Shown here one piece after another: positions 7,689 to 29,792 of a stretch of 64,000 nt of DNA. A program made the translations under genes and the position numbers. The DNA comes from an uncultured Hormoscilla sp. (GTDB lineage Bacteria > Cyanobacteriota > Cyanobacteriia > Cyanobacteriales > Desertifilaceae): assembly GCA_963921275.4 (NCBI GenBank), contig OZ001293.3, forward strand, positions 2,080,001 through 2,144,000, in the 5' to 3' direction. Every line of letters starts with the position of its first letter. Position 1 is the stretch's first letter. The notes under the pieces were generated by a model that ran no database searches, was not told the origin of the DNA, and was given only the letters and a program-made list of their open reading frames with translations.

Positions 7689-8876
7689 ATGCTAGATTTA
7701 GTTTTAGGGAAAGGGATTAGAAAAAAGGGCCAAGGCCGCAAGCTATTGCTGATGGAGATGGCAGTGGTGGCGGCGATCGCCTTGCTGCTAATCTTAATTA
7801 TGCCAGTGATGCTGTCGGAGTTTCGCCTGAACTTGCTGGGGCGTTTTCTGGCTTTGGCGATCTCCGCCCTGGGCATTGACCTGATTTGGGGCTATACTGG
7901 TATGCTAAGTCTGGGGCATGGGGTCTTCTTTGCCTTGGGCGGATATGCGATCGCTATGCACATCAAGCTGGAAATACCGGCGGATGCGGCCACGCAACTG
8001 CCAGAATTCATGAGTCTGTACGGAGTCACGGAATTACCCTGGTTTTGGCAACCATTTGACTCCTTTTTCTTTGCTACCGCTGCTGTGGTCATTATTCCAG
8101 CTATCCTGGGGGCAATTCTGGGCTATCTGGTATTCCGCAACCGCATCCGGGGAGTTTATTTTTCCATTCTCACCCAAGCGGCAACTATTGTGTTTTTTAA
8201 CTTCTTCAACGGTCAGCAAAAATTAATTAACGGCACTAATGGCTTAACTTCTTTCAAAACTCTTTTGGGTGCCACAGTCAATGACTCCAAAACTCAGTTA
8301 GCATTCTATGCTATCACAGTGCTGTTGCTGGCCGTAACCTATGCTTTATGTCGCTGGCTGACGAGTGGACGCTTTGGACGCTTACTGGTGGCAATTCGGG
8401 ATGATGAAAGTCGCGTGCGTTTTACTGGTTACAACCCGACTGGCTATAAGGTTCTGGTATTTGCGATCTCCGCTGGGTTGGCCGGACTAGCGGGGGCGAT
8501 GTTTACCCTGCAAACTGGGATTATTTCTCCGAAAGCAATGGATATTGCTTTCTCCATTGAAATGGTAATCTGGGTAGCAGTGGGGGGTCGCGCTAGCTTG
8601 GTGGGTGCGGTTCTGGGTACCCTGATTGTTAACTATGGTAAAAGCTTGTTGTCCGAACAGTTTCCCCAAGTGTGGCTGTTCTTTCAGGGGGCTTTATTTT
8701 TGCTGGTCGTGACTGTACTTCCTAATGGTGTCGTTGGTTGGTTGCGCTTTCAGGGCCTGGAGAAAGTGCGATGGCACCTTTTAGGGAAGCAAGTAGTAAC
8801 CTATCCCAGTTTAGAGTCAGACCCAGAAGTGCAGCGGGAACGGGAATTATTAGAAAATGATACAATAGATGATTGA
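7689..8876 (+). CDS. urtC: Urea ABC transporter permease
   Basis: GIDLIWGYTGMLSLGHG, IRGVYFSILTQA, AIRDDESRVRF, SIEMVIWVAVGGR. Confidence 0.95.
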   Translation: MLDLVLGKGIRKKGQGRKLLLMEMAVVAAIALLLILIMPVMLSEFRLNLLGRFLALAISALGIDLIWGYTGMLSLGHGVFFALGGYAIAMHIKLEIPADAATQLPEFMSLYGVTELPWFWQPFDSFFFATAAVVIIPAILGAILGYLVFRNRIRGVYFSILTQAATIVFFNFFNGQQKLINGTNGLTSFKTLLGATVNDSKTQLAFYAITVLLLAVTYALCRWLTSGRFGRLLVAIRDDESRVRFTGYNPTGYKVLVFAISAGLAGLAGAMFTLQTGIISPKAMDIAFSIEMVIWVAVGGRASLVGAVLGTLIVNYGKSLLSEQFPQVWLFFQGALFLLVVTVLPNGVVGWLRFQGLEKVRWHLLGKQVVTYPSLESDPEVQRERELLENDTIDD

Positions 8877-10182: not shown

Positions 10183-12183
10183 ATGACTTATAGAGATGTT
10201 TTGCTCCCCTTAAACCTCAAAGGCGATCGCAATATCTGCGTCGCTGTCCTTGACGGTCCTGTCGATCTCGCTCACCCCTGTTTCCAAGGAGCCGATCTGA
10301 CCGTGCTTCCCACCTTGGCTCCTACGGCTGCCCGTAGTGACGGCTTTATGTCCGCGCACGGCACCCACGTTGCCAGTATTATTTTCGGTCAACCGGAAAC
10401 TAGCGTTCGAGGTATCGCTCCCCAGTGTCGGGGGCTCATCGTCCCCATATTTTCCGACGATCGCAGGAGGACAACCCAGCTCGATCTAGCTCGGGGTATC
10501 GAGCGGGCTGCCATTGCCGGAGCCCACGTTATCAACATCAGCGGCGGCGAACTCACCGATTTTGGCGAGGCGGACGGGTGGCTCGAAAATGCTGTTAGCC
10601 TGTGTCGGCAGAAAAATATTTTGATCGTAGCTGCGGCAGGGAACAACGGCTGCGACTGCCTGCACGTTCCCGCCACCTTACCCGCCGTATTGGCCGTAGG
10701 CGCAATGGACGAGCGCGGGCATCCCTTGGACTTTAGCAACTGGGGATCTTCCTACGAGCAGCAGGGCATTCTCGCTCCCGGTGAAAATATTTTGGGGGCC
10801 AAGCTCGGTGGCGGCACAGAACGCCTCAGCGGCACCAGCTTTGCAACCCCAATTGTTTCCGGCGTCGCCGCCTTACTGCTGAGCAAGCAAGTTCGCCGGG
10901 GCGAAACCCCCGATCCCCAAAAGGTGCGCCAAGTGTTGTTGCAGAGTGCTTTGCCCTGCGACCCCGAGGTGCCCGAAGCGACCCGCCGCTGTCTGGCCGG
11001 GAAATTGAACATCTCTGGAGCTTTCACTTTACTGACAGGAGGAAATATGTCTGAAGAAGTCACGAACGCTGCCGTTCCCAGCGTAGAAGCGTCGGGGAAC
11101 TGTGGATGCGGCGGTGGACTCGTCACTGCCGATACCACTACCGAGTCCGGTCTGGTGCCGGAGCGGTCGGTGTTCGCTGCGACGAGTCCCGCTGCTATCG
11201 AAGCTGCCGGCAGCCTCGACCCCCAGCCCGTTCCATCGCCCACCCAACCCCCCGTACAAATGCCAGTCCAATTCCCTACACAAACACTCTCTATGACAAC
11301 CAATCAAGTTACACCCAGCCAAGCCCCCAGCGAACTTGCTAACAGTCAGTTCGTCTATGTCCTAGGAACTTTGGGCTACGACTTCGGCACCGAAGCTCGC
11401 CGCGACACCTTCAAGCAACTCATGCCGCCCTTTGAGTTTGCTGGTAATATGGTTCCGGCCAACCCCTACGATGCCCGTCAGATGGTGGACTACTTGGCTG
11501 GCAATATCTCAGAAGCGCGATCGCTGATCTGGACCCTTAACATAGAACTGACCCCGGTCTATGCCATTGACCCAACCGGTCCTTTTGCTTCGGAAACCTA
11601 CCACGCCCTTCAGGAACTGCTCGAAGGTCAAATCCAAGCGGAAGATAATGAAGAATACGTTGAGCGTGTCAGCATTCCCGGTATCTTGACCGGGCGATCG
11701 GTTAAGCTCTACTCCGGTCAAGTTATCCCGGTTGTTGAACCCCAAAGCACCCGCGGTCTCTACGGTTGGAAGGTTAATAACTTGGTAAATGCTGCCATGG
11801 AGGCAGTTCGCGCTGAAGGAGGGGATGCAGGGGAAGAGCGCATTCGCCAAACCTTGGATGGCTTTCTCAACCGCATCTACTACGATCTGCGCAACTTGGC
11901 AACCACTTCCCAAGACCGGGCCCTCAACTTTGCCGTTACCAACGCCTTCCAAGCTGCCCAAACCTTTAGCCAAGCGGTGGCGGTGGGCATGGAACTCGAC
12001 AGCGTTACTGTGGAGAAAAGTCCCTTCTGTCGCCTAGATAGCGACTGCTGGGATGTAAAGTTAAAGTTCTTCGACCCAGAAAACAACCGTCGTGCCAAGA
12101 AGATTTACCGATTTACCATTGATGTGAGCGATCTGGTTCCAGTTACTATGGGAGAAGTTCGTTCTTGGTCTTCTCCTTACTAA
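10183..12183 (+). CDS. patA: Cyanobactin N-terminal maturation protease (subtilisin-like plus C-terminal DUF), intact
   Basis: VAVLDGPVD / HGTHVASII / SGTSFATP catalytic triad; C-terminal YDFGTEARRD...DSDCWDV...EVRSWS DUF. Confidence 0.95.
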   Translation: MTYRDVLLPLNLKGDRNICVAVLDGPVDLAHPCFQGADLTVLPTLAPTAARSDGFMSAHGTHVASIIFGQPETSVRGIAPQCRGLIVPIFSDDRRRTTQLDLARGIERAAIAGAHVINISGGELTDFGEADGWLENAVSLCRQKNILIVAAAGNNGCDCLHVPATLPAVLAVGAMDERGHPLDFSNWGSSYEQQGILAPGENILGAKLGGGTERLSGTSFATPIVSGVAALLLSKQVRRGETPDPQKVRQVLLQSALPCDPEVPEATRRCLAGKLNISGAFTLLTGGNMSEEVTNAAVPSVEASGNCGCGGGLVTADTTTESGLVPERSVFAATSPAAIEAAGSLDPQPVPSPTQPPVQMPVQFPTQTLSMTTNQVTPSQAPSELANSQFVYVLGTLGYDFGTEARRDTFKQLMPPFEFAGNMVPANPYDARQMVDYLAGNISEARSLIWTLNIELTPVYAIDPTGPFASETYHALQELLEGQIQAEDNEEYVERVSIPGILTGRSVKLYSGQVIPVVEPQSTRGLYGWKVNNLVNAAMEAVRAEGGDAGEERIRQTLDGFLNRIYYDLRNLATTSQDRALNFAVTNAFQAAQTFSQAVAVGMELDSVTVEKSPFCRLDSDCWDVKLKFFDPENNRRAKKIYRFTIDVSDLVPVTMGEVRSWSSPY

Positions 12184-12276
12184 GAAACAGCCAAATATTA
12201 GTGTAAGTAAAACAAACTGTGCTTTCACTAAAAAAGTTACTCAACTTATTTACTATATTGTGGAGAATCCCGAACT

Positions 12277-12516
12277 ATGCGACTTCCGCTACTGTCTGCC
12301 CCTGTAAAACGCCCTCATTTCATCCAGCCTGCTCTATGTGTAGATGTTGAGAATGGCCGTGTTAAAGATTTGCTACATATTCGCATAGATCTTATGCACG
12401 GTGCTAACTATAATGACCCGCCAGCCTTTGCCAACCGCAGTTTCAACCAAGTGATGCACTCAAGTGCCAGCAATGGCTGGGGCGGGTTTGCCAGTAGTAT
12501 GGGACGCTTATTATGA
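12277..12516 (+). CDS. patB: Cyanobactin PatB/AcyB/McaB family protein
   Basis: MRLPLLSAPVKRPHFIQP...DLMHGANYNDP signature. Confidence 0.92.
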   Translation: MRLPLLSAPVKRPHFIQPALCVDVENGRVKDLLHIRIDLMHGANYNDPPAFANRSFNQVMHSSASNGWGGFASSMGRLL

Positions 12517-14091
12517 CTCAAGAAACGGAAACTCTATGGCAAATAGGTAAACCTGGTAAAAGAGGTCAGGAGTTTGTGCAAGCAGGTGGCTGGCAAGCTG
12601 AATTTACTTATGTTGTTGGGTCTGATGAGGATGGGGTCGAGCCGGGAATCGCTTCCCGACCCTCCCTTGAGGAACCGGACTTGCGATTTTCACCGCATCC
12701 GGCTACTGGGTACTAGGCCCTTTTCATAGGTAGACTTAATAGGAATTACTTCCGTTAGCCCTTGCCGCCTGTCTTTTCTTCCCTTTCCTGGTTTAGCGAG
12801 TGGTTGTTCTGATAACCGTTAGTATCACCATTTTCAAGTCAGTTTTACCAGTTATCCATACCTTATCCTCCACTTGCGTTTCGGATTAGTTCCGTGGCTT
12901 TTTAGGATTACTCATTCCAGCAGCTTCCTAGTATCACCGACCCACGTCAGCGCTGGCTACCCAGCATCATCTACATTACTGTAGATGTTATCCCAGGAAT
13001 TACCCCGGGCATTCGCTTCTTGGGCCATCCCTCCCCCCGTGGCTTGCGCTTAACATCTAACTTGTCCTGATGGACAGCACACGAGAGGTTACTTCGTTCC
13101 CTAACAACATTTCGCGATACCTTTAGGTCCACACTATACCCCGGGAGCTATTTGAGTACTATATTAGCCAGAGTCTAAAACTAATACTAGCTACCATTTC
13201 CTTTTTAGGCCAGCGCATATAGCCTTATTTCGCTGGTTCCTTATAACGAGGCTTGCACATGTTTGCCTGCTCTAACCTTGGATATCTTTCCTAGCGGCGT
13301 CACCGGCTTAGGCTGCCAGTTATCCTACATTTGAGTCCTCGCTTAGCACCACGATGATGTCGCTTCGTAGCACCGAGGACCGGTGTCACCCCCGTACCTG
13401 GGGGGAGGGGAATTTAACCCCCATGCGGTCAGAGTTCCCGGCTAATGAAACCGGGCTAGCGTTCCGTGTTTGACCACGTTAGGCTAGAACGAATCGCACA
13501 GACTCAATAAACCTACCCCATATGCCGCCATTGCTGTTGGTTCCAGGTCGCAAGACGAAGCAAAAGCGATACGGGAAGCAGATTTTTGCTACAGATAAAC
13601 TAAACATCCAATTTACCCTAGCCCAGGATTATAATGCCGAGGAACTCACGCTTTTTTACGACTTTTTGGGCTCTGAAACTGACACCCTGTTTGTAGATGG
13701 CGAGCCAGTGACGAAACTCGTAGGAGTCGGTAAAGACAAGCTGAAGCAAACTCAGATTACTTTACCCGCTCTGAGCGCAGGGGAACATACCCTGACCATC
13801 ACCACCTCTGGTGGGAAGGGAGATGGCAGACATTGGATTGACTACCTGAAGCTCGAGGGGATTGTCGCTCCTCAGCAACCAGAAACATCAAAGGAGGAAA
13901 CTATGGTTAATAAAAAGCCTACCGCAAAATCTCAAACGGCTGAGAAGAAAAAGTCTTACGTCATGACTTCTACGACGGGTATGCAAGACTAATCTTATTG
14001 GTCGCTCCACGTCCGCGATCGCTACGGGGAAGAGGCGAAAAAATATGAACGCGATCCCAAACCTTTCCGACGAGGGCGGATTTGGGCTTAA
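12513..14091 (+). pseudogene. patC: PatC/TenC/TruC-family gene with an extra N-terminal beta-sandwich domain; split by an antisense intron and a nonsense codon
   Basis: Removing 12629-13499 restores one frame (VGSDE-DSINLPHMPP); C-terminus TTGMQD*SYW...KPFRRGRIWA with in-frame TAA at 13990-13992. Confidence 0.85.
12629..13499 (-). mobile_element. ORF-less group II intron, inserted antisense in patC
   Basis: Minus strand starts GTGCGATTCGTT; domain V AGCCGGATGCGGTGAAAATCGCAAGTCCGGTTC followed by a DVI hairpin; no RT ORF; colinear with the prfC intron. Confidence 0.9.
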
Positions 14092-15756
14092 CTCTAAGGC
14101 TACCTCTTTTTAGTGATTTTGTATAAACGTACATCCTCGCCCGATGACGAACGAAAGATTGCTTCCTTTGTCAAAACTTACTTAACTTATTAGTCACAAA
14201 CCTTCGCTTTATGCAAGCAACCACGCTCCAAATTAAGCCCCACTTTCACGTTGAGATAATTGAGCCAAAGCAAGTGTATCTTCTCGGCGAACAGGGCAAC
14301 CACGCTCTCACCGGGCAGCTCTACTGCCAAATTCTGCCTTTCTTAAACGGCGAATACACCCTAGAACAAATTGTTGAAAAGCTCGACGGGCAAGTTCCGC
14401 AGGAATATATCGACTTCGTACTCAATCGTCTGGCGGACAAAGGCTATATAACTGAGGTGGCTCCAGAACTATCCCTGGAAGTGGCAGCATTTTGGAGCGA
14501 ACTGGGAATTGCTCCTTCTGTGGTGGCAGAAGGGCTAAAGCAGCCAGTGGTGTTGGCAAGGGCGGGCAAGGGCATTAGTGACTGGGTTTTGGCTACGCTC
14601 GCGGCAGCTCTGGAGGAAGCTGGCATTCATGTGTCAGATCCAAAGGCAGGGGATTCTACTGCCCAGCTTAAGGTCGTGTTGACCGATGACTATTTACAGC
14701 CGGAACTTGCAGCGATCGACAAGCAGGCGTTAGAGCGCCAACAACCCTGGCTGCTGGTTAAGCCTGTGGGCAGTATCCTCTGGTTGGGACCGGTGTTCGT
14801 TCCTGGGGAAACCGGATGTTGGCACTGTCTTGTCCATCGATTGCGAGGCAACCGCGAAGTTGAAGCATCGGTATTGCAACAAAAACGAGCGCTGCAGGAG
14901 CGCAACGGTCAACATGGGAATGGTAGAGTGGGTTGTTTGCCCACAGCACGGGCAACCCTACCTTCTACCCTACAAACAGGGTTAAAGTGGGCTGCCACCG
15001 AGATTGCTAAGTGGACGGTCAAACGGTACGTCAACGCCAAAGCACCGGGAAAAGCTCGTTTTCCCACTCTAGATGGCAAGATATTTACATTCAACCAGAC
15101 GATTCTGGAGTTGAAAGCTCATCCTCTGAGCCGACGGCCGCAATGTCCGACCTGTGGAGATCGAGAAATTCTACAACGGCGTGGTTTTGAACCTCTGAGA
15201 CTAGAGTCGCGCCCCAAACACTTCACCTCCGATGGCGGTCATCGCGCCATGACCCCAGAACAAACGGTGCAGAAATACCAACACCTAATCGGGCCGATAA
15301 CTGGGGTGGTGACAGAACTGGTGCGAGTTTCTGACCCTGCCAATCCCTTGGTGCATAGCTACCGGGCGGGGCATAGCTTTGGTAGTGCTATGTCTCTGCG
15401 GGGGTTACGGAATACCCTACGCTACAAGAGTTCTGGTAAAGGCAAGACCGATAGCCAATCTCGGGCGAGTGGGCTTTGTGAGGCGATCGAGCGCTATTCG
15501 GGCATTTTTCAGGGAGACGAACCCCGCAAATGGGCAACTTTGGCTGAATTAGGAGACGTGGCGATTCATCCAGAACAATGTTTGCACTTTAGCAACAGGC
15601 AGTATGAAAACCGGGATGCGCTCAACGCTCGGCAGCAGCCTATCGGTGGATTCCCAATCGGTTTGATGCCAGTCAATCCATAGACTGGACGCCCGTATGG
15701 TCGCTGACGGAGCAGAAGCACAAATACGTGCCCACTGCTATCTGTTACTATAACTA

Positions 15757-16768
15757 ACTCAAGTTGCGACCTATAAAAATTGGATACAAAAAGCTATGAT
15801 AAAGAGAATTATTTTCAACTCTAATCCCTTAGATGTAACAGCATGAATTGACTTGGGAAACAAATTGGTGATTCGACTAAAACAGGTTTCAACTTGTTTT
15901 CTTGTTACTTTTTGTATATATTCAAAACAAGAAGATTCTTTTCTTTTTGAGTTCTTTTTTCGCAAAGGTTTTAACATTATACTTGACGACTCTTTTAGTA
16001 AATCCTCTAATTGATAATCATTATAAGCTTTATCTCCATAAACTATTGAATTTGATGGTAAGTCAAAGCCAAAAGATTGCAAAACTTTAACATCATTATA
16101 ACTACCAGGATCTAGATAAAATTCTATTGGCTTTCCATTTTTGTTTACCAACATATGAACTCTTAATCCATAAAAATAACGTTTTTTACTGGCAATATAC
16201 CCTCGATATTCTTCCTTGTTATAAATTTGGCATCTATCAATCCTAATATTATCACATACTGGCACCGGGAAACTATCAAGAATATATTCTTGACCCGGAT
16301 TGAGCTCTTTAAATGTTTGAGCTATAACTTGGAAGAAAAACATCCAAATTGGTTCCTCAATATTGTGTAATCGACGATTGAACCTACTTTTACTTAACAG
16401 ATTTTTTATATACTTGTGTTGGACCATAAATTGACAAGAGCGATCGTGGTGTCCTCCGAAAAAATATGCAGCAACTAATCCGACTGTCATCACTTCGGCA
16501 TTGTTCATTTTTACTTGTGGATCTTCTTTTATATTTAACGCTTTTAGTAGCTCGTCACAAAGAACAAAAATTGTTGTAATCATATCTTCCATCATCTACA
16601 TCCCCCAGCAATTAACTATTATTTTAGTACATTATAACCTATAAACAGCCAACCCGCCGTCTAGCACAAAAAAAATATAATTTTGTATCAAAAGCTACGA
16701 AATATCCCAAATATCTGTAAAGTCTAAGTGGGTAATTCATATTTTTTTTAATAGGTCGCAACTTAGGT
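15757..16768 (-). mobile_element. IS982-family insertion sequence (1012 bp)
   Basis: 18-bp IRs ACTCAAGTTGCGACCTAT / ACCTAAGTTGCGACCTAT; 8-bp target duplication TATAACTA at 15749-15756 and 16769-16776; AT-rich. Confidence 0.92.
15771..16595 (-). CDS. IS982-family DDE transposase
   Basis: SKSRFNRR, ILDSFPVPVC, YFYGLRVH, YGDKAY, RKQVETCFS. Confidence 0.9.
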   Translation of the reverse strand: MMEDMITTIFVLCDELLKALNIKEDPQVKMNNAEVMTVGLVAAYFFGGHHDRSCQFMVQHKYIKNLLSKSRFNRRLHNIEEPIWMFFFQVIAQTFKELNPGQEYILDSFPVPVCDNIRIDRCQIYNKEEYRGYIASKKRYFYGLRVHMLVNKNGKPIEFYLDPGSYNDVKVLQSFGFDLPSNSIVYGDKAYNDYQLEDLLKESSSIMLKPLRKKNSKRKESSCFEYIQKVTRKQVETCFSRITNLFPKSIHAVTSKGLELKIILFIIAFCIQFL

Positions 16769-17697
16769 TATAACTACCCGCTGCCTCCGGCAGATCGCTT
16801 CTGTAAGGCTGATTCCAACGGAAACGCAGCAGGGAACTCCCTGGAAGAGGCAATTTTGCAAGGGTTTATGGAACTGGTGGAGCGCGATAGCGTAGCCCTG
16901 TGGTGGTATAACTGCCTGCGCCGTCCGGAAGTGGACTTGAGCAGTTTTGAGGAGCCATATTTTCTCCAGTTACAGCAGTTCTACCGCACCAAAAATCGCA
17001 AGATGTGGGTGCTGGATTTGACGGCTGACTTAGGGATTCCCGCCTTTGCAGGTTTATCCCGGCGCACGGTGGGTAGCTCGGAGCGGGTCTCAATCGGTTT
17101 TGGAGCGCACCTAGATCCTCAAATTGCCATCCTCCGGGCTCTAACTGAGGTCAGTCAAGTTGGGCTAGAGCTTGATAAAGTCCCTGACGAGAAACTTGAT
17201 AGGGAGTCAAAGGACTGGATGTTGGAGGTGACTTTAGAGACTCATCCCTGTTTGGCTCCCGATCCCTCCCAGCCTCGGAAAACTGCCGACGATTACCCGA
17301 AGCGCTGGAGCGATGACATTTATAGAGATGTCATGGATTGTGTGGAGATGGCCAAAGTTGCCGGACTAGAAACCTTAGTGCTAGACCAGACGCGATCGGA
17401 CATCGGCTTGAACGTTGTCAAGGTAATTATACCGGGAATGCGAACGTTTTGGTCGCGGTTTGGTTTGGGGCGACTCTACGATGTCCCCGTGAAGCTTGGT
17501 TGGCTGAAGGAGCCTCTAGCTGAAGCACAGATGAACTCTACGAACATCCCATTTTAAGAATTTTCAAGTTTGGGGGCAACAGGCTTCCCTACGTGCCGGA
17601 TGTTGCCCCAGTAGGCTTCTTCTCAAATGAAGAAGGGGAATGACCCACCCGAACGGGTCAATAAAGCAAAAAAAGACAACCAATGAGGTTTTTTTCA

Positions 17698-17943
17698 ATG
17701 GACAAGAAAAACATTCTGCCCCAACAAGGCCAACCCGTCGTCCGCTTGACTGCTGGTAAACTCCCCAGCCACTTGGCCGAACTCTCTGAAGAAGCTCTCG
17801 GCGATGCTGGTGTTGGTGCATCTTCCAGCAGTTGTATCTGCGCCTATGATGGTGTTGATGCATCTTCCAGCAGTTGTATCTGCGCCTATGATGGTGTTGA
17901 TGCATCTTCCAGCAGTTGTATCTGCGCCTACGATGCTGAGTAA
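17698..17943 (+). CDS. patE: Cyanobactin precursor peptide with three SSCIC core cassettes
   Basis: MDKKNILPQQGQPV leader, LAELSEEAL (RSI), GVGAS/GVDAS-SSCIC-AYD x3; GAGG Shine-Dalgarno upstream; 39-bp DNA repeat. Confidence 0.95.
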   Translation: MDKKNILPQQGQPVVRLTAGKLPSHLAELSEEALGDAGVGASSSSCICAYDGVDASSSSCICAYDGVDASSSSCICAYDAE

Positions 17944-18193
17944 GCGTAAGGATATATGGCTAATACAAAGTCCGCCTCAAAAGATTAAAAGCCAATCCCA
18001 AAAGGGATGCAGCAGATCTGGGTAGTTAACCTACATAAGCCGGATTTGGTATTAGATAGCTATAGAAGACGAGGTTAAAGATAGCCAAGTCGCTGAAACG
18101 TTCTTTTGAGTTTTGTGGGTGCAGGCTGTTCTCCTCTACCCTCGTCTTCTTTTATTTCAGTTGTTAAATCCTTACTTACTAAGATTCAAGATT

Positions 18194-19150
18194 ATGAACC
18201 TAACTTCAATACTTAAACATAATCGTCTCGCAGACCGCCGTCTTCAGTTTATGCGTGCCCATCAAGATGCTTTTGATGTGGAGGCAGCTTTCCCTCTGCC
18301 TATCTTTGAAGAGGCAATGCTTGAGATAGAGGGCGCTTGTGGATTTGAATGCTCTTGCAAAGTTGAAGCTGGCCAACTGCTAGCAGGGCGTTTTGAGATT
18401 TGTAATGATGTGGTAAAACCTTGGCCGGGATCCCTAACCCATGCAGTTAAGCTATTGGATCGGATTGAAAATCGGTTGGGCGTCCGCCTTAATCGTGACC
18501 TGTTCGAGCAGTTTGTAGCAGTACATCTTGGCTCTGGCAAAATCGATACTAATAGTATCGGCATTCACTTGGGTTCAAAGCAGGAAGATAACAGTATAAT
18601 AATATATATCTATCTCAATTACGATCGAGATCCTGAAGAATTGGTAAGAACAGCGATCGCTCTCGATGGGGGTTACTACTCAGATGAATTGAGACAGGTT
18701 CTAATGAGAGATACCATGCTCATCGGCTTTAAACTTTTTTTTGATGGTCGCAGTCATGTGGAGCTATGTCCTTGTGCTTCAGCAAAGCCTGGAAAATTGG
18801 GAAACAGAGGGAAGTATCTCATACCCTACATCCAAAAGCACTTTTCAGCAAAGGTGAATTACCTGTTTAGAGTTTCATCTATGGTGATGACAGGCTTTTC
18901 TAAAGCCTGTGTAAAACCAGTATACTGGTTTTACTTCGCCAACATCAAAGACATCTTAAAATATGTTTCATTTAATAGCTTAGGAGATCGGATATATAAT
19001 TTTTGTCAGAGTCAAAGTTGCATTACATTGTCTGCTGTAGCAGTTGCAGAGCAAGAGTTAGAGAAGAATAGGTTAGAAAATTTTTGTTTTTACTACAATC
19101 AACGTGACGAATGCCAACCGCATCCAAGTCCAGATTGGGACTTTTCTTGA
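18194..19150 (+). CDS. patF: PatF/TruF/LynF-family protein (PatF-like, lacks the D/R/K motif residues)
   Basis: RRLQFMRAHQDAFDVE...FNSLGDRIY...ELEKNRLENFCFYY; IGIHLGSK..NSIII segment. Confidence 0.88.
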   Translation: MNLTSILKHNRLADRRLQFMRAHQDAFDVEAAFPLPIFEEAMLEIEGACGFECSCKVEAGQLLAGRFEICNDVVKPWPGSLTHAVKLLDRIENRLGVRLNRDLFEQFVAVHLGSGKIDTNSIGIHLGSKQEDNSIIIYIYLNYDRDPEELVRTAIALDGGYYSDELRQVLMRDTMLIGFKLFFDGRSHVELCPCASAKPGKLGNRGKYLIPYIQKHFSAKVNYLFRVSSMVMTGFSKACVKPVYWFYFANIKDILKYVSFNSLGDRIYNFCQSQSCITLSAVAVAEQELEKNRLENFCFYYNQRDECQPHPSPDWDFS

Positions 19151-19320
19151 AAACAAGATTCGGTAATTATATATTAATTATCTATTGCCATGATTGCTCA
19201 TCCCTTTGCAGTTTCCCTCAACCCCGATATCCAAGTTCTCGGAAACTGAAAATGCAATTGTATGAGCCGGTATTTTCAGATAAATTTGTAAATCACCTTA
19301 AGATTACATCTCTAACTTCT

Positions 19321-20303
19321 ATGTTTCAACATAATCGTCTCAAAGACCGCCGTCTCCAGTTTCTGCGTGCCCATCAAGATGCTTTCGATGTAGAGCCAAC
19401 TTTTATTCTTTCGCTCTTTGAAGAAGCAGTATTGGGAATAGAAGGGAATTGTAGTGTCGAACCCTTTTGTAATGTTGAAAAAAATCGGTTGTTTGCAGCA
19501 GACTTTCATGTTTCTAATGAAGGACATACATGGCCAAGATCTTTGACTGATGCTGTAAAGTTCTTGGATCGAGTTGAAACTAAAGTAGGCGTTAAACTCA
19601 ATCGCGATTTGCTCGATCGGTTTGTGGCGGTACACATTGACTCCCATAAAATAATAAACAACACGATTGGAATCGACCTAAGACAGAGAAACGAGGATTC
19701 TTGCATCAAGGTATTTATGCACCTTGATTATGAAGAAGAGGCTGGAGAATTAGTGAGGACAGCGCTCGCACTTGATGGAGGCAGCTATTCGTCTGAATTA
19801 CTACAGGTATTACTTAAAAGCACTATTGTCATTGGGTTAATATTTTCCTGAATGGCTACAGTGATGTAGAGCTGTGGCCAGCTTGTGTGGGAGAGCAATA
19901 TGAAGGTCGTAAATTGAATCGAGGCAGGTATTTGAAAGATTATGTTCAGAAATTCTTTTCTACTAAAGTCAATTCTCTGTTAAGAGAATCGGCTGTATTG
20001 GCAGTCATTTTTTCTAAAGCGAAGAAGGCAGAGCCAATTCTAGCATTTCATTATGAAGATATTAAAGACATACGAAAGTATTTCTCATTCAACAGTTTAA
20101 GCGATAGAATTTACAGCTTTTTTCAGACTCAAGATTGCATCAATGGTCCTGGTGTGAATGTGACGGAGTTGGAATTAGAAAAAGATCGATTGGAAAATTT
20201 TAGTTTGTTTTATAATAAACGCGATAACTGTCAGCCTATGCCTTTTCTTCAAATGCCGATTGATAATCAACGTTTCGTTAGGCTTATGCTTCAAGTGAAT
20301 TAA
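19321..20303 (+). pseudogene. Second PatF/TruF-family prenyltransferase, 1-nt deletion near 19838
   Basis: RRLQFLRAHQDAFDVE...IGIDLR...SCIKVF; GGG TT AAT ATT TTC CTG AAT GGC needs one more T to read IGFNIFLNGYSDVELWP and join ORF 19887-20303. Confidence 0.85.
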
Positions 20304-20434
20304 ATGAATAAAACTTTGTTATAACATCCTCTCAAGTCTTCTTAACGTCGAATTATGTGCTATTCTGAAAGCTTATCAGATAGCTACTACTATCAAAGTA
20401 CTCACCTAATTATCGCTTCCCATTATCCATAACC

Positions 20435-23400
20435 ATGAGCAGCCACCCCTTTGCTATTTCCCTCAACCCTGATATCCAAGTCACAAGCACCGGAAAACAT
20501 TACACTCTGCACTCGGCAGAGTCAGAGCCAACCGCTTTGCTAAGCTTGGCCACAACACCGGGAATGGATATGGCTCTCGATCGCCTCAAAGCAGGCAGCA
20601 CGACCACCGAATCGCTCGTGCAAACCTTAGCCGAACTTGATGGTCGCGCAGCCGGGGAACAGTTCGCACTGACGCTACAACAACTGGACGAGCAAGGTTG
20701 GTTGAGTTACGCCGTATTGCCCCTGGCAGAGGCGATCCCCATGGTAGAATCCGCCGAGTTGAATCTTCCGGGCACTCCCCACTGGATGGAAACGGGTGTC
20801 ACTCTCTCCCGCTTTGCCTACCAACATCCCTACGAAGGCACAATGGTGTTGGAGTCGCCCCTCTCCAAGTTTCGAGTAAAGCTCCTCGACTGGCGAGCGA
20901 GTGTGCTTCTAGCTCAACTCGCCCAGCCCCAAACTCTCAGGACAATTGCACCACCGCCCTACCTGGGACCGGAAACCGCCTATCAGTTCCTCAACCTGTT
21001 ATGGGCAACGGGGTTTCTGGCGAGCGATCGCGAACCGGCTTCACTTCAACTTTGGGATTTCCATAACCTGCTGTTCCACAGTCGCAGCCGCTTGGGTCGC
21101 CATGACTACCCAGTTATGGACTATGATATGGAACACTGGTCAGATTTCCCGGCAGTGAAGCCACCCACGAGTGACAAAATTGTGCCCCTGTCGCGTCCGA
21201 ACTTGGAGGCATTGAGGTGTAACGATGCCACCCTGACAGAAGCGATTGAAACGCGGAAATCGCTAAAAGGAGAATATGACGACAATAATCCGATCGCGAT
21301 CGAGCAACTGGGAGAACTTCTTTATCGCACTGCCCGTGTCAAGAAATTGCTTTCTCCACAGGAGTGTTTGGGCAAATTTTGGCAGAAAGAAAAGCTGTAT
21401 TTTGAAGAAGCAGGTATAGACTATGGCGAGTTGACCCGTCGCCCTTATCCAAGTGGCGGGGCAATGTATGAATTAGAAATTTATCTGATAGTACGGCTTT
21501 GTCAAGGGTTGACTCAAGGAGTGTATCACTACGACCCACTGAATCACCACTTAGAGCAGATTTTTGAATTTTCACCGGAGGATGATATCTTAGCTACATC
21601 AGGTTATGGGGTATGGCATAAATTTGGTCATCCACCACAGGCTATCTTAGTGATTACGGCACGGTTCGGTCGGCTATTTCGTAAATATCGCTCTATCGCT
21701 TATGCGCTAGTGCTTAGGCACGTTGGGGTATTGCAACAAAATCTTTACCTAGTAGCAACTAATATGGGTCTAGCTCCCTGTGCTGGAGGAACAGCAGATA
21801 GCGATGCTTTTGCTCAAGTGGCTGGTCTAGACTATCTGGAAGAATCGGCTGTCGGAGAGTTCGTACTGGGCTCGTTGCCCAATGTCAAAGCAAGTGGGAT
21901 TGAATCCATTGAGGTGGATGGCTTAGAAGGGTCTGCCGAGGCGAACTTATCAGCGAGTTCAACTGAAATTGATGGGGTTGAACCCGAGTCCCTGGAAGCA
22001 GAAATGTTGGCAAATGAGGTTGAACCCAACGGGTTCGTGGCGGAAAATCAGGGGGCGGAGGCGAGGGAGGTTCTGGGAAATACTTCGACACGAGTTGAGG
22101 AAACTGAGGCTGAGGCAGTTGCGTTGGATGTTTCAGAGGGGCTAACCGAGACTCTAGACGCATCAACTCATATAGCAGATTCGGTTGACTTATCTGGGTC
22201 AGCCCCATCTCCATTCGAACCAATAGCATCAGAGGTTTTGGCTAGCGAAGTGGAATCGGGTGTTGCAGAGGATGAAATCGAACCTGCGGATGCTTCGGCT
22301 GGCGAAGTCGAGAGTTCTGCAACCAAACAAAAGGTGGCACTCCACCCCCACGATCTCGACGATCGCATCCCTGGTCTGGCTGACCTCCACAACCAAACCC
22401 TGGGCGACCCTCAGATTACCATTGTGATTCTAGACGGCGACCCAGACCACACATTGTCCTGTTTTGAAGGAGCCGAAGTTTCTAAGGTTTTTCCCTACTG
22501 GCACGAATCCGCAGAACCGATCGCCCCAGAAGATTATGCAACCTTCCAAGGTATCCGGGACAAGGGACTGAAGGGCAAGGAGAAAGAAGAAGCTCTCGAA
22601 GCTGCTATCCCAGAGACCAAGAACCGCGTCGAACTCAATGACCATGCTTGTCATGTCACCAGCAATATCGTTGGTCAAGAACACAGCCCCGTGTTCGGTT
22701 TAGCTCCTCGCTGCCGGGTGATTAATATGCCCCACGATGCCGTAATCAAGCCAGACAATGGCATCGCTTTGAGTGGCTACAGTGAAATGTTGTCGCCTCT
22801 GAATATAGCCCGTGCTCAAGAGTTGGCGTTGGAGTTGGGCGCAAATATCATTCACTGTGCCTTTTGTCGCCCCACCCAAACCAGCGAAGGGGAAGAGATC
22901 CTCGTCCAAGCCATCAAAAAATGTCAGGACAACAACGTTTTAATTGTCTCGCCCGCAGGAAACAATGCAAACGAATGCTGGTGTCTGCCTGCTGTTCTAC
23001 CGGGAACCCTGGCGGTGGGGGCTGCAAAAGTCGATGGTACGCCTTGCCACTTCAGTAACTGGGGCGGCAACAACACAAAAGAAGGCATCCTTGCTCCGGG
23101 TGAAGATGTTCTAGGGGCGCAACCCTTTACCGAAGAACCCGTGCGCCTAACTGGAACCAGCATGGCGGCTCCGGTGATGACGGGCATTTCCGCCCTACTG
23201 ATGAGCCTGCAAGTACAACAAGGCAAGCCCGTCGATGCAGAAGCCGTCCGCGCTGCCCTACTCAATGCCGCTATTCCCTGCGACCCAGAGGTTGTAGAAG
23301 AACCGGAACGCTGTTTGCGGGGCTTTGTCAATCTTCCTGGCGCAATGAACGTGCTGTTTGGGCAGCCCTCCGTCACTATTTCCTTTGCAGGCGGTCAAGC

Positions 23401-24427
23401 GACCCGCACCGAACGCCCCGGTTATGCTGCGGTTGCTCCAGAAAGCATTCCAGACCCAATGGCACAGAGCGCTACCCCAGCAGTACAACCCGCCACACCA
23501 ACTCAGATGGCGATCGCGCCCTCCACAGAACCAGCCAACCCAGCGACAGTTGAGGCCAGCACCGCCTTTTCCGGTCACGTTTATACTCTGGGTACACTCG
23601 GCTACGACTTCGGGGACGAAGCCCGTCGGGACACCTTCAAGCAACTCATGGCTCCTGCAAATCTTGACGGCATTATGGTGCCACCAGACCCCTACGATGC
23701 TCGCCAGATGGTGGAACACCTCGACCGCAACCCCGACGAGGCTCGCTCTTTGATTTGGACGCTCAACCTGGATGGAGACACCATCTACGCCCTCGATCCC
23801 AAAGGGCCGTTTGCCACGGATGTTTACGAGATATTCCTACAGATGTTGGCAGGGCAACTGGAACCAGAAACCAGTGCGGAATGTATCGAGCGCATCAGCG
23901 TTCCTGCCCGACGGACAACTCGCACTGTGGAACTTTTTTCTGAAGAAGTCGTGCCCGTCGTCAACGTGTGGCATCCTCGGGGGATGTACGGTTGGAATGT
24001 GAATGCGTTAGTCAATGCAGCGTTGGCAACTGTAGAAGATGAAGAAGCTGACGAAGAGGAACTGCGGCAAGGACTCACCGCCTTTTTAAATCGGGTGTAT
24101 CACGACCTGCATAATCTGGGACAAACCTCTCGCGATCGCGCCCTCAACTTTACCGTTACCAATACGTTTCAGGCAGCATCTACTTTTGCCCGGGCGATCG
24201 CCTCGGGGCGGCAACTCGACACCATTGAGGTGAAGAAAAGTCCCTATTGTCGCATCAACAGCGATTGCTGGGACGTGCTATTAACCTTTTTCGACCCCGA
24301 GAACGGGCGGCGATCGCGCCGGGTCTTCCGTTTCACGTTAGACGTAGTAGATACTGTACCGGTAACGGTGGGCAGCATCAAGAGTTGGTCATTGCCTGGT
24401 AAAGGCACCGTCGCAAAAACCATATAA
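20435..24427 (+). CDS. patG: PatG: azoline oxidase, macrocyclising protease and DUF domains, intact
   Basis: WDFHNLLFHSRSRLGRHD and RPYPSGGAMYELE oxidase; ILDGD / HACHV / GTSMAAP triad with helical capping insertion PEDYATFQ...ELND; C-terminal DUF. Confidence 0.95.
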   Translation: MSSHPFAISLNPDIQVTSTGKHYTLHSAESEPTALLSLATTPGMDMALDRLKAGSTTTESLVQTLAELDGRAAGEQFALTLQQLDEQGWLSYAVLPLAEAIPMVESAELNLPGTPHWMETGVTLSRFAYQHPYEGTMVLESPLSKFRVKLLDWRASVLLAQLAQPQTLRTIAPPPYLGPETAYQFLNLLWATGFLASDREPASLQLWDFHNLLFHSRSRLGRHDYPVMDYDMEHWSDFPAVKPPTSDKIVPLSRPNLEALRCNDATLTEAIETRKSLKGEYDDNNPIAIEQLGELLYRTARVKKLLSPQECLGKFWQKEKLYFEEAGIDYGELTRRPYPSGGAMYELEIYLIVRLCQGLTQGVYHYDPLNHHLEQIFEFSPEDDILATSGYGVWHKFGHPPQAILVITARFGRLFRKYRSIAYALVLRHVGVLQQNLYLVATNMGLAPCAGGTADSDAFAQVAGLDYLEESAVGEFVLGSLPNVKASGIESIEVDGLEGSAEANLSASSTEIDGVEPESLEAEMLANEVEPNGFVAENQGAEAREVLGNTSTRVEETEAEAVALDVSEGLTETLDASTHIADSVDLSGSAPSPFEPIASEVLASEVESGVAEDEIEPADASAGEVESSATKQKVALHPHDLDDRIPGLADLHNQTLGDPQITIVILDGDPDHTLSCFEGAEVSKVFPYWHESAEPIAPEDYATFQGIRDKGLKGKEKEEALEAAIPETKNRVELNDHACHVTSNIVGQEHSPVFGLAPRCRVINMPHDAVIKPDNGIALSGYSEMLSPLNIARAQELALELGANIIHCAFCRPTQTSEGEEILVQAIKKCQDNNVLIVSPAGNNANECWCLPAVLPGTLAVGAAKVDGTPCHFSNWGGNNTKEGILAPGEDVLGAQPFTEEPVRLTGTSMAAPVMTGISALLMSLQVQQGKPVDAEAVRAALLNAAIPCDPEVVEEPERCLRGFVNLPGAMNVLFGQPSVTISFAGGQATRTERPGYAAVAPESIPDPMAQSATPAVQPATPTQMAIAPSTEPANPATVEASTAFSGHVYTLGTLGYDFGDEARRDTFKQLMAPANLDGIMVPPDPYDARQMVEHLDRNPDEARSLIWTLNLDGDTIYALDPKGPFATDVYEIFLQMLAGQLEPETSAECIERISVPARRTTRTVELFSEEVVPVVNVWHPRGMYGWNVNALVNAALATVEDEEADEEELRQGLTAFLNRVYHDLHNLGQTSRDRALNFTVTNTFQAASTFARAIASGRQLDTIEVKKSPYCRINSDCWDVLLTFFDPENGRRSRRVFRFTLDVVDTVPVTVGSIKSWSLPGKGTVAKTI

Positions 24428-24533
24428 TCGTCTCAAAGACCGCCGTCTCCGGTTTTTGCGTGCCCATCAAGATGCTTTCGATGTGGAACCAAATTTTATT
24501 CTTTCGCTCGAGGCAGTATTGGGGATAGAAGAG
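24423..24533 (+). pseudogene. 5' fragment of a third patF copy
   Basis: ataatcgtctcaaagaccgccgtctcc...gcccatcaagatgctttcgatgt nearly identical to 19331-19445. Confidence 0.8.
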
Positions 24534-24819: not shown

Positions 24820-25575
24820 ATGAATAGTAAAATATTAGAAATTGAGAACCTCACAGTTAGCTTTGATGGTTTTAAGGCCCTGAACCAGCTAAACTTTAGC
24901 ATGGATACGGGGGAACTGCGGGTCATCATTGGTCCTAATGGTGCGGGAAAAACCACCTTTCTAGATGTGATAACTGGGAAGGTGCAACCAACAACAGGAC
25001 AGGTGCTATTTAAGGGCCGGAATACCCGACGCTTATCGGAACATAAAATAGCCCGCCTGGGAATAGGTCGCAAGTTTCAGACGCAGAGAGTTTACCTAAA
25101 TTTGACAGTCCGGGAAAATCTCGACCTCTCCTGTAACCGCAATCAAAATGTTTTTGCTACTCTGTTCAAACCGACATCCGTAGCTGAAGGTCACACTGTC
25201 AAAAACTTGCTGGCCACGATCGGGCTAACAGGGAAAGCGGAAATGAAGGCAGAATTGCTTTCTCACGGGGAAAAGCAACGGTTAGAAATAGGCATGTTAG
25301 TGGCACAGTCACCGGACTTGCTGCTAGTTGACGAACCCGTTGCGGGGTTGACAGATGAGGAAACCGAACAAACGGGGGATCTGCTGTTGAATTTGGCCGA
25401 AAGTCATTCCATTATTGTCATCGAACATGATATGGAATTTGTCCGCCAAATTGCCCGCCAGGTGACCGTGTTACATCAAGGTGCAGTTTTGTGCGAGGGT
25501 AGCATTGAGGAGGTGCAAAATGACCCCCAGGTGATCGAAGTTTATCTGGGACAACCCTACAACCAAGATGAATGA
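24820..25575 (+). CDS. urtD: Urea ABC transporter ATP-binding protein
   Basis: VSFDGFKALN, GPNGAGKTT, GIGRKFQ, LSHGEKQRLEIGM, VIEHDM. Confidence 0.93.
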   Translation: MNSKILEIENLTVSFDGFKALNQLNFSMDTGELRVIIGPNGAGKTTFLDVITGKVQPTTGQVLFKGRNTRRLSEHKIARLGIGRKFQTQRVYLNLTVRENLDLSCNRNQNVFATLFKPTSVAEGHTVKNLLATIGLTGKAEMKAELLSHGEKQRLEIGMLVAQSPDLLLVDEPVAGLTDEETEQTGDLLLNLAESHSIIVIEHDMEFVRQIARQVTVLHQGAVLCEGSIEEVQNDPQVIEVYLGQPYNQDE

Positions 25576-26588: not shown

Positions 26589-26606
26589 CTCCTATCCCCT
26601 GTGGTA

Positions 26607-29004
26607 ATTAAACTAAGCCAGTCCGTCACCGGACCGACTCGTCTTCAAAACCGGACATGAGACTTTCGCCTCATCCGGCTCCTCGGTCACGCCACCCTTG
26701 TCATGGGTACGGCTACTACCATCGCTGGCAGTCTTTTTGTCGTGGCAGTGTTTGTGTAGCAACTGTAGGTTGTCATACCGGTCCTTACCTCCTAGTGAAA
26801 GGGGCATGATATGGTCAACTTCCCATTTGTCACTATCCATAAACGTTAGTCCGCACTGTTGGCATTTTCCCTTTTGCTGCTTGAGTAGCGTTGCTACCCT
26901 TTTACTCAGTTCGAGGCTTTTGCCTAATCTTGTGCTCCAATATGTGAGGTTCCCGTCGTATGGGCTTGCGGTCCCTTTCACTTTTACGTGTCTGATTATC
27001 TCAGTTTCGGAGTGTTTGCGTATCTTCATATCACCCTCTTTTGTCTTGCTTCGGAATCGCCATTTAGCATCCTGGTTTACAGACCAGTATTTATAGGTTA
27101 TCCAGTTACTTGACTTGTTAGGGTGCCTCCTTTTGGCCCATTGCCATAGGATGTTTTATAGGTAGTTGTCCATATCGCTGTAAGTTTCCTTGCTTACCAC
27201 TGTCCTAAAGTAGTTTGACCATCCCCTTATTATCGGGTTTAGCCTGCTTATTAGGGCCGCTTGTGGTGCTGTTATATGGCTAGTTACCATTTCTGATAAC
27301 CGTTCTTTATGCTTCCCTATGGACTTATTACTGGGTTTGATTAGGGTTTTGAATCCTAGGGGTGTTCCGTTTGTTGATTTGCCGGTTCTGTATTTTCCCT
27401 CTTTATATTGCCTTATATTGAATCCTAGGAAGTCGAATCCCGGGTTTTCTCCATTTAGCCTGTGGGCTATCTTTGTCTTTTCGGCCTTCAACTCAAGCCC
27501 TATTCTTCTTAGCCACTCTGCCACCACTGTTTGCGCTCTGTCTATCATCTCCCTGTCTTCATGCATGATCACAAAGTCGTCTGCGTATCTGACTACCGTC
27601 AGCTTTTGCTTTTCCCTTTGTGTCTTTGCTAATTCCATTACTGCTTCCTCTAACCCCTGTAGGGCTATATTGGCTAGCAGTGGGGATATGACACCCCCTT
27701 GTGGCGTTCCTGCCTCAGTTGTGTGCCATATCTTCTTGTCAATCACCCCGGCTTTTAACCATGCCCGTACTTGTTTACGGATTGGTGACGTAGTATTTAA
27801 TTTTTCGACTAGCGCTTTGTGGTCTATCCTGTCGAAACATTTCGCAATATCTGCATCTAATACCCATTTGGGTTTCTGTTTAATGCTGCTGAATATTGCC
27901 GCAATTGCATCGTGGCATCCCCGACCCGGTCTGAATCCGTATGAGTTCCCCTCCATATATGCTTCCCATTCGGGTTCGAGCGCAATCTTGAGGAGCCCTT
28001 GATTCGCGCGGTCGTGCATCGTGGGTATTCCTAAAGGACGTTTTTCTTCTCTCCCTGGCTTAGGAATCCATACACGACGTGTAGGCTTAGCCTTGTTTGA
28101 GATTTCAATCTGTCCTACCAGTTCTCGGCGTTGCTTTGGGGTTAGTGATTTCACACCATCCACACCGGCTGTCTTCTTTCCCTGGTTATCTTGTGTAACC
28201 CGTCGTACCGCTAGACATTTGGCAGCCCGGGAGCTTACCAGTAACCTTTGGAGCCTGCGAACTTTTTGCTTATTGCCTTCTTGTGCCGCTCTGTAAATTC
28301 GTTTTTGCAACTTAAAGACTACCCGTTCCAGCCGAGGCCAGGGGATATCCTTCCATTCATTCATCGATTTTGACATCGTGCTCATGACGTATGTATTGCT
28401 ACTTACAACTTTACAATTGACGTTACCGTGAGGGCGTCAGCATATCCCATCCATTACAGAAAGGCGTTAGCTTCTCCGCGAAATCTTTCCCAGATATAAC
28501 CTGCCGAATGTAAGCAGATGTTGCGCCTTTGGTGGCTGCTCAACCTATCGACCGGTGGTTGAGAGTATGTACCTGGTTTACTTCGTTCCTCTAGATGATT
28601 GGTCGTAGTTTTAGGTGGATTCCTTATGCCGGGTTTATTGTCGGTGCTTATTGGTCGGAAAAGGAACCGCCAATGACCATTATCCTTTCCCTTTTGGGCC
28701 AGCGTGTTTAGCCTTATTACGCTGGTTTGTCGTAACGACACTGTAAATCTTTGCTTTCGCTCACCGTAACTACTTGCACGCTGCGCGAAAAATCGGCGAT
28801 GACCGGTTTAGGCTACCAGCCAGGGCGCCTTTCGTACCCGCTTCACGGATTGATGCCATCGCTACCGTGGGGTAAGTGCTGTCACTCCTGCACCTGGAGG
28901 GGTGGGCTTTCACCACCATCATCTAAAAGTTATCAAGGCTAATGGAGCCTTGCCAGTGGTCCCCCTTCGGTTATCACCGGTGGTTTACACTGAACGAGTC
29001 GCAC
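26607..29004 (-). mobile_element. Group II intron (chloroplast-like class) encoding RT-maturase-HNH
   Basis: Starts GTGCGACTCGTT; domain V GAGCCGGATGAGGCGAAAGTCTCATGTCCGGTT; ends TTTAAT. Confidence 0.9.
26613..28385 (-). pseudogene. ltrA: Group II intron-encoded protein (RT/X/HNH) with one in-frame TAA at 27156-27158
   Basis: RPLGIPT, GFRPGR, DADIAKCFD, GTPQGGVISPLLANI, RYADDF; DNYL*NILWQWAKRRHPNKS continues in frame to CQQC...VDHI...NLQLLHKHCH. Confidence 0.9.
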
Positions 29005-29395: not shown

Positions 29396-29760
29396 TTGCT
29401 GCTGCCCTACAAGCCCCCGCTGGAAATGGCCGCAGTTAATGCCGAAAAGGGCGAGCGGGTGGGTTTCAATTTAGAAGCAATTGCTAAAATCCAGGAAATT
29501 ACAACTGTTGCTGGGGCGAAATTCCTCCTAGTCATGACCCCTCTCCTGCGGGAAGTTGGCGCACCCGAACCCCGCAATTATGAAATTAAAGCCCGATCGC
29601 GACTATTGGAACTTACTTCATCGCAGGGAATAGAATACATTGACTTTTTGCCGATTTTCAAGGATGCCGAAAACCTGAATCATTGTATCGCGATCATATT
29701 CATCTAAGTCCCGCAGGTAACCAGATGGTGAGTCAAACTATATGCTATGCTATTCGTAGG
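29396..29760 (+). pseudogene. C-terminal fragment of an SGNH/GDSL hydrolase
   Basis: ...IEYIDFLPIF then, frameshifted, LYRDHIHLSPAGNQMV (DxxH motif); N-terminus missing. Confidence 0.55.
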
Positions 29761-29792
29761 TTTGGTTGATGTTAGGAAACCAAACCAGCGAT

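Follow-up and report, generated by a model that had tools for sequence, protein, structure and literature searches.

How long is the peptide that a cyanobactin locus encodes, and can the locus still make it? Both questions are raised by a gene cluster at 10183-24427 of a 64-kb stretch of DNA (the window), part of a contig of about 6.9 Mb. The original prediction, made from the letters alone, recognised a patA-G cyanobactin cluster and read its precursor as three cassettes GV(G/D)AS-SSCIC-AYD, that is, with a core of five residues. We compared the locus with protein families, solved structures and related loci. From sequence similarity it can be identified as a genuine patellamide-type cyanobactin cluster, far beyond chance, and the matches in Pfam, NCBIfam and PDB searches, which were unambiguous, bear out that part of the prediction. 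The core is an ordinary six-residue SSSCIC, and the five-residue SSCIC is a miscount, one serine short. Taken together, the island is very probably a pat/bis-type cyanobactin locus with three six-residue SSSCIC cores that is now being lost as pseudogenes.

Length of the core peptide

The cluster lies on the plus strand and comprises patA, patB, patC, patD, a precursor gene, two copies of patF, and patG. The precursor (MDKKNILPQQGQPVVRLTAGKLPSHLAELSEEALGDAGVGASSSSCICAYDGVDASSSSCICAYDGVDASSSSCICAYDAE) matched Pfam DUF5837 with an E value of 1.9e-23. Its leader contains LAELSEEAL, and each core is flanked by recognition sequence II (RSII), GV(G/D)AS, and recognition sequence III (RSIII), AYD, so that the leader and the three identical core cassettes described in the prediction were found with their canonical signals. 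The five-residue core was not. The cassette region translates as ...GVGASSSSCICAYDGVDASSSSCICAYDGVDASSSSCICAYDAE, and the cassette DNA reads GCA TCT TCC AGC AGT TGT ATC TGC, with the Ala codon followed by four Ser codons (TCT TCC AGC AGT). Tandem Repeats Finder returned a period of 42 nucleotides for the precursor (3.1 copies, 96% matches), and the three cores are identical down to the nucleotide level. The 42-nucleotide unit corresponds to 14 residues, and subtracting the five residues of RSII and the three of AYD leaves a core of six, SSSCIC; a five-residue core requires a period of 39 nucleotides or 13 residues. The prediction had itself named an ordinary SSSCIC hexapeptide, reached by a shifted protease cut, as the outcome that speaks against it. 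The hexapeptide is what we found, and no shifted cut is needed, as the canonical cut after G-x-x-A-S gives SSSCIC. The proposed strained cyclic pentapeptide, cyclodimer or linear product lose their premise, because the core has six residues and not five.

The related precursors showed the same layout. A protein search gave 185 homologues, of which the 120 listed (the window's own included) were parsed with the pattern G-[AVLI]-[EDG]-[AP]-[SA] / core / [AS]-[YFHSC]-[DEN]. Among their 369 cassettes, 313 had six-residue cores, and five, seven, eight and eleven residues occurred 8, 35, 12 and 1 times, respectively. Of the 142 distinct six-residue cores, 116 had Cys, Ser or Thr at position 2, 140 at position 4 and all 142 at position 6, compared with 28, 14 and 4 at the odd positions 1, 3 and 5. 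SSSCIC fits this family pattern exactly, with Ser2, Cys4 and Cys6. The 14-residue cassette period and the alternate placing of the heterocyclisable residues are both features of hexapeptide azole cyanobactins of the bistratamide, tenuecyclamide and aerucyclamide type. When the precursor was aligned with BisE, TenE, TruE3 and two others, 41 columns were invariant, and SSSCIC fell into the very columns occupied by the hexapeptide cores of BisE and TenE.

Among named proteins, the closest is BisE from the bis pathway of Prochloron sp. LV5, and it is with this protein that the bis comparison was made. BisE and the precursor share their length, the leader, the three-cassette layout, the flanks GVGAS/GVDAS...AYD, the C-terminal AYDAE and six-residue cores of the form X-(S/T)-X-C-X-C. 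They differ in the cores themselves (VTVCVC and VTACFC in BisE, SSSCIC three times here), and the host of BisE is an ascidian symbiont. Passages of PMC2854353 assign VTVCVC to bistratamides E, H and J and ATGCMC/ATACAC to the tenuecyclamides, all of them cyclic hexapeptides. Since the flanks of BisE are identical to those found here and the bistratamides are hexapeptides, such flanks release six-residue products.

A core of five could still arise if the N-terminal protease cut one residue later, after GV(G/D)ASS, leaving SSCIC, which would become a strained ring of five residues, a cyclodimer or a linear peptide. The run of four serines does make the cut site look ambiguous by eye, and 8 of the 369 cassettes parsed as five-residue, for example GVDAS-FVPCC-SYD. 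However, the RSII motif G-x-x-A-S is already complete ahead of the second serine, and BisE, with identical flanks, has its core start immediately after AS. The 14-residue period is also that of the 313 six-residue cassettes, and the heterocyclisable residues fall on the family positions 2, 4 and 6 only when the core has six residues. We therefore regard a later cut as extremely improbable and retain the six-residue SSSCIC.

Among the relatives, the precursor P0119 of Planktothricoides sp. SR001 carries a genuine-looking five-residue core (FVPCC, three times) and is the place to look if five-residue cyanobactin cores are of interest. P0078 and P0102 gave five-residue parses after an ...AA signal, for which a six-residue reading is equally possible.

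The prediction's remark that the core was not recognised from described cyanobactins carries over to the actual core. SSSCIC occurred in none of the other 119 listed precursors, and neither SSCIC nor SSSCIC was present in 12 loci found in a genome contig scan (among the matches listed, from at least 595 stretches that did not include the window's own genome). In a full-text literature search of the searchable library, SSSCIC appeared in no peptide paper and SSCIC in no cyanobactin paper.

Lesions in patC, patD and patF2

In alignments to related loci, patA, patB, the precursor gene, patF1 and patG were open and full length. We located the lesions of the remaining genes using intact homologues from related loci as tblastn probes (Table 1). 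That patD and patF2 are broken, as the prediction implied, was confirmed in both genes. In patD, the 7-nucleotide deletion near 15620 appeared as a seven-column gap against four homologous loci, with the tblastn high-scoring segment pairs moving from frame 3 to frame 2. Further downstream, the gene is interrupted by an IS982-family insertion sequence (IS), present as a single copy in the window and bounded by an 8-bp target duplication, TATAACTA, at 15749-15756 and 16769-16776. An intact YcaO cyclodehydratase gene was thus not found in the cluster, the PatD-like gene being split by the 7-nucleotide deletion and the IS982 element. In patF2, the segment pairs shift from frame 1 to frame 3 at a 1-nucleotide deletion.

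The C proteins of related loci have 231-253 residues. In patC, the two coding parts are separated by a group II intron lacking an open reading frame (ORF), whose minus strand starts with GTGCG from 13499 and is 76% identical over 873 nucleotides to an intron in prfC. Its antisense orientation means that it cannot leave the patC transcript by splicing. This gap was also considered as a miniature inverted-repeat transposable element (MITE) or an IS, which we rejected, as the Rfam match and the homology to the prfC intron show a group II intron. The 3' part additionally contains an in-frame TAA at 13990-13992, where L007, the sole homologue whose alignment was examined there, has Tyr. When the intron was removed at the boundaries based on prfC, the two halves were out of frame, with an excess of 2 nucleotides over an L007-like junction by hand reading.

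The prfC gene itself (release factor 3; 54243-56713, plus strand) appears interrupted by a sense, ORF-less group II intron of about 860 nucleotides at about 54478-55335. Its exon 1 ends in ...ISITSTVLQ, and the Rfam RF00029 match lies at 55251-55329.

Table 1. Coordinates of the cyanobactin genes, their lesions and the flanking urt genes in the window
Feature	Position	Strand	Evidence and state
urtA	4665-5930	+	NCBIfam UrtA equivalog, above cut-off; left flank of island
urtB	6508-7677	+	NCBIfam UrtB equivalog, above cut-off; left flank
urtC	7689-8876	+	NCBIfam UrtC equivalog, above cut-off; left flank
patA, RSII N-terminal subtilisin-like protease with DUF domains	10183-12183	+	666 residues, intact; Pfam Peptidase_S8, PatG_D, PatG_C
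patB	12277-12516	+	79 residues, intact; NCBIfam TIGR04220 PatB/AcyB/McaB, 120.7 bits (cut-off 55)
patC, 5' part	12513-12630	+	about 39-40 codons; tblastn match to residues 1-43 of L007 and L001 C proteins
Group II intron, ORF-less, antisense in patC	12631-13499	-	about 869 nucleotides; Rfam RF00029 domains V/VI at 12631-12707, 44.4 bits (gathering score 40)
patC, 3' part	13500-14088	+	tblastn match to L007 C-protein residues 40-231, running through in-frame stop
patD, 5' part	14211-15756	+	winged-helix domain and start of YcaO; 7-nucleotide deletion near 15620 shifts frame
IS982-family element	15757-16768	-	1012 bp; transposase ORF 15771-16595 intact; 25-nucleotide terminal inverted repeats; NCBIfam NF033520, 198.7 bits
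patD, 3' part	16769-17557	+	YcaO C-terminal portion; Pfam YcaO; 93% identity to PatD P0122
Precursor, patE-like	17698-17943	+	81 residues; alternative ATG at 17683; Pfam DUF5837; 78% identity to BisE, register aligned
Cores SSSCIC (three)	17824-17841, 17866-17883, 17908-17925	+	translation of precursor
patF1, PatF-like	18194-19150	+	intact; 420.9 bits to PatF PDB 4bg2
patG-like 5'-end remnant between patF1 and patF2	19177-19236	+	60-nucleotide direct repeat, 80% identical to 20422-20481
patF2	19252-20303	+	broken; 1-nucleotide deletion near 19839
patG: oxidase, long acidic linker, macrocyclase, DUF domains	20435-24427	+	1330 residues, intact; Pfam HTH_57, ThcOx, Nitroreductase, Peptidase_S8, PatG_D, PatG_C
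patF2-like 5'-end remnant just after patG stop	24424-24530	+	86-nucleotide repeat, 94% identical to 19331-19416; 37-residue tblastn match to F-protein residues 10-46
urtD	24820-25575	+	NCBIfam TIGR03411, 371.9 bits (cut-off 304.1); right flank

The consequences of these lesions differ between genes. Passages of PMC4663559 describe the B and C genes as non-essential and restrict the D gene to pathways that yield products with heterocyclised residues; the patD lesions are decisive for this reason. In its present state the locus alone should make no azole peptide, and a mature cyclic peptide from it would be unlikely because patD is broken. Cyanobactin clusters that carry transposases or are silent are described in parts of the same source for mae (Microcystis NIES-843) and art (Arthrospira). 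Unlike in those clusters, the IS here splits the cyclodehydratase gene itself, and a group II intron lies antisense in the C gene.

Alternatively, the locus could still yield its product if another cyanobactin or YcaO cyclodehydratase, encoded elsewhere in the genome, provided the D function in trans and if the small frameshifts were assembly errors. The intactness of patA, patB, the precursor, patF1 and the 1330-codon patG is in keeping with this, as are the nucleotide-identical cores and the reported dispensability of the B and C genes (passages of PMC4663559). Against it, sequencing errors do not typically take the form of an IS982 element with a target duplication or of a 7-nucleotide deletion, three genes carry five lesions of four or five kinds, which is a decay pattern, and no second D gene was found within the window. 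We consider continued production improbable, and decay of the locus remains our preferred reading.

Several points nevertheless weigh against that reading. A second intact D gene is possible elsewhere, as the window covers only 64 kb of the contig, and the open patA, patE, patF1 and patG could indicate very recent inactivation or some residual use. An assembly error could account for the patF2 lesion, which falls within a short run of A; the IS, the intron, the 7-nucleotide deletion and the nonsense codon are not of that type. At the patC junction, an intron boundary misplaced by one or two bases or an additional small lesion would account for the mismatch in frame. Finally, the cut site at the Ser-rich junction AS/SSS is placed by homology.

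Enzymes and predicted ancestral product

The enzymes resemble those of the pat cluster of Prochloron didemni. The D protein was 89% identical to PatD of that species (P0122) over its N-terminal part (425/480) and 93% over its C-terminal YcaO part (243/262), compared with 75% to TrfD (P0183; 197/262) over the C-terminal part. The TruD and LynD PDB chains matched both D fragments, correspondingly weaker (C-terminal part: 448.7 bits for TruD, 4bs9; 448.2 for LynD). The prediction that the D enzyme recalls PatD over TruD agrees with these values. The A and G genes encode two homologous subtilisin-like proteases, each with C-terminal DUF domains (Peptidase_S8, PatG_D and PatG_C in both) and with PDB matches to PatA and PatG chains. 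The PatA protease matched 4h6v with 592.9 bits and few mismatches, and residues 13-666 aligned to homologues of 657-673 residues in 11 loci.

PatG matched the macrocyclase chains 4h6x and 4aks, the DUF chain 4uvq and the oxidase chain 5lq4 (CyaGox, 349 bits). Against 4h6x (723.7 bits) it showed one 7-residue insertion and no loss, and the alignment was gap-free over the segment ...PYWHE...KGKEKEEALEA..., which we take, after the PatG structure papers, to be the capping-helix insertion. The expectation that PatG keeps both its oxidase and its capping helices was therefore upheld, with the capping segment placed on this assumption. PatG aligned over its full length to homologues of 1280-1387 residues in 10 of 11 loci; the homologue in L002 (1057 residues) lacks the middle of the oxidase region. 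The 7-residue insertion lies at about 22790-22830. A long acidic linker rich in Ser, Glu and Ala spans residues ~482-611 (21880-22270) between oxidase and macrocyclase, and appears extended compared with that of PatG.

The locus and the pat cluster share the order A-B-C-D-E-F-G, the oxidase domain in G, and a PatA protease and PatG macrocyclase near the solved Pat chains with few mismatches; patF1 has the inactive-type His/Gly of PatF. Unlike pat, which according to passages of PMC4663559 has the two eight-residue cores ITVCISVC and VTACITFC, the present locus has a second F gene, the PatG macrocyclase insertion, three broken genes and relatives whose C gene has the length given above. The ten (tenuecyclamide) cluster of Nostoc spongiaeforme is alike in its hexapeptide cores ATGCMC and ATACAC, which are in register with SSSCIC, in TenD (78% identical to the C-terminal part of D) and in a product class with one oxazole and two thiazoles (passages of PMC2854353). 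It differs in having four cassettes, GAGAS flanks and a free-living host, and the cluster is intact and producing.

From the known biochemistry of the family, the pathway, when intact, would have run as follows. On the leader-bearing precursor, the PatD-type YcaO cyclodehydratase would heterocyclise Cys4, Cys6 and probably Ser2 of each SSSCIC. PatA would cut after each GV(G/D)AS, and the PatG macrocyclase would cut before AYD and close the ring. The PatG oxidase domain would then aromatise the thiazolines to thiazoles, and perhaps the oxazoline too, so that each precursor would give rise to three copies of cyclo[Ser-oxazol(in)e-Ser-thiazole-Ile-thiazole]. Three heterocycles are expected in this product, a cyclic hexapeptide of the bistratamide/tenuecyclamide type: two thiazoles and either an oxazoline or an oxazole. 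Its [M+H]+ was calculated as 523.143 in the oxazoline form and 521.127 in the oxazole form; each prenyl group would add 68.06.

The two F proteins bear on a more heavily modified product. Both belong to DUF5838 (PatF family). At the positions of PatF His125, Gly127 and Met136, patF1 encodes His, Gly and Ile, which is the inactive type, and the frameshifted patF2 encodes Asp, Arg and Lys, as in OcyF and PirF. In passages of PMC3668578, the inactivity of PatF is attributed to His125 and Met136, with Gly127, where its active relatives have Asp, Lys/Arg and Arg, and the tru pathway is described as prenylating free Ser and Thr. Active prenyltransferases of the TruF1/LynF/PagF type have Asp and Lys/Arg at the positions of His125 and Met136. 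Both F proteins had OcyF as their second-best structural match, and a full-text literature search on it returned no relevant paper. An intact F protein encoded in locus L005 is 75% identical to patF2.

In the ancestral product, Ser1 and Ser3 may also have been modified, either by cyclisation to form contiguous azol(in)es or by O-prenylation through the second F protein. Cyclisation is compatible with a PatD-like D enzyme, as enzymes of the PatD type act on Ser and Thr too (passages of PMC4663559). Prenylation is compatible with the active-type residues of patF2 and with the prenylation targets of the tru pathway (passages of PMC3668578). On the other hand, Cys, Ser and Thr are uncommon at positions 1 and 3 of the family cores (28 and 14 of 142), leaving little precedent to judge from; patF1 has inactive-type residues; and patF2 is broken. 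We consider this more modified form doubtful and retain the hexapeptide with a single cyclised serine as the expected product. A compound from the SSSCIC core would be easily made with existing PatA/D/G tools.

The two remnants listed in Table 1, one between patF1 and patF2 and one just after patG, point to past rearrangement of the F and G genes, apparently by duplication or recombination. Comparable fragments of the patG start follow F genes in loci L001 and L007.

Host, insertion site and neighbouring elements

The island (about 16 kb with its non-coding flanks) parts urtABC from urtD in the operon of a urea ABC (ATP-binding cassette) transporter. In cyanobacteria, urtABCDE would normally be expected to be contiguous. 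No urtE-like ORF was found in the ~5 kb after urtD, which instead leads into a group II intron that encodes a reverse transcriptase, and a repeat search gave no convincing att-like (attachment-site-like) direct repeats flanking the island. G+C content is uneven over the island (patA 0.56, patG 0.53, patF1 0.42, patF2 0.38, IS 0.31; window 0.48).

The intron after urtD is the third group II intron of the window (about 26600-29000, minus strand), with an intact reverse transcriptase/maturase ORF at 27156-28385 (TIGR04416, 332.5 bits) and domains V/VI at 26607-26684; its maturase could mobilise the ORF-less copies in trans. Further downstream, a short repeat array at 29750-30100 encodes a peptide-like motif, …KPRTNLLGFWTKPNA…, in several overlapping frames on both strands, immediately upstream of a 455-residue ORF without a family match. 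The ORF at 31816-32970 (plus strand) has weak similarity to specificity subunits of type I restriction-modification systems (NF007278, E 1e-23, far under the cut-off).

UrtA was 94-98% identical to proteins of six Hormoscilla metagenome-assembled genomes and at most 84% identical to those of the next named cyanobacteria. Judged by protein similarity, the host is a Hormoscilla-like filamentous cyanobacterium, whose lineage is known to live in symbiosis with sponges. For the Pat enzymes, the closest counterparts are those of Prochloron, which lives in symbiosis with ascidians. According to a passage of PMC7313196, the kind of sponge in which Hormoscilla lives also yielded a Prochloron genome bin, and a shared sponge is a plausible meeting place of the two. 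Term searches of the Hormoscilla genome papers PMC6520454 and PMC7313196, supplements included, found no cyanobactin cluster described in the passages returned; those of PMC6520454 mention only two uncharacterised shared RiPP (ribosomally synthesised and post-translationally modified peptide) clusters.

These observations allow a more specific scenario, which we put forward as tentative and rather unlikely in its full form: a fairly recent transfer of a Prochloron-type pat/bis pathway into the urt operon of a Hormoscilla-like symbiont, which before its decay may have made an undescribed hybrid product, a Ser-rich azole hexapeptide in which one Ser is cyclised by a PatD-type enzyme and the remaining free serines are O-prenylated by an active-type second F protein. 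If true, pat and tru chemistry would have been combined in one molecule.

On the evidence in hand, what is new here is the SSSCIC core sequence and the Hormoscilla-like host lineage; the pathway type is well understood, and is here decayed. The six-residue core removes a false lead, as the locus holds no five-residue core to challenge the ring-size limits of PatG-type macrocyclases. With enzymes about 90% identical to those of Prochloron and a position within the urt operon, the locus would neatly illustrate how a pathway can be transferred to a symbiont and then decay there.

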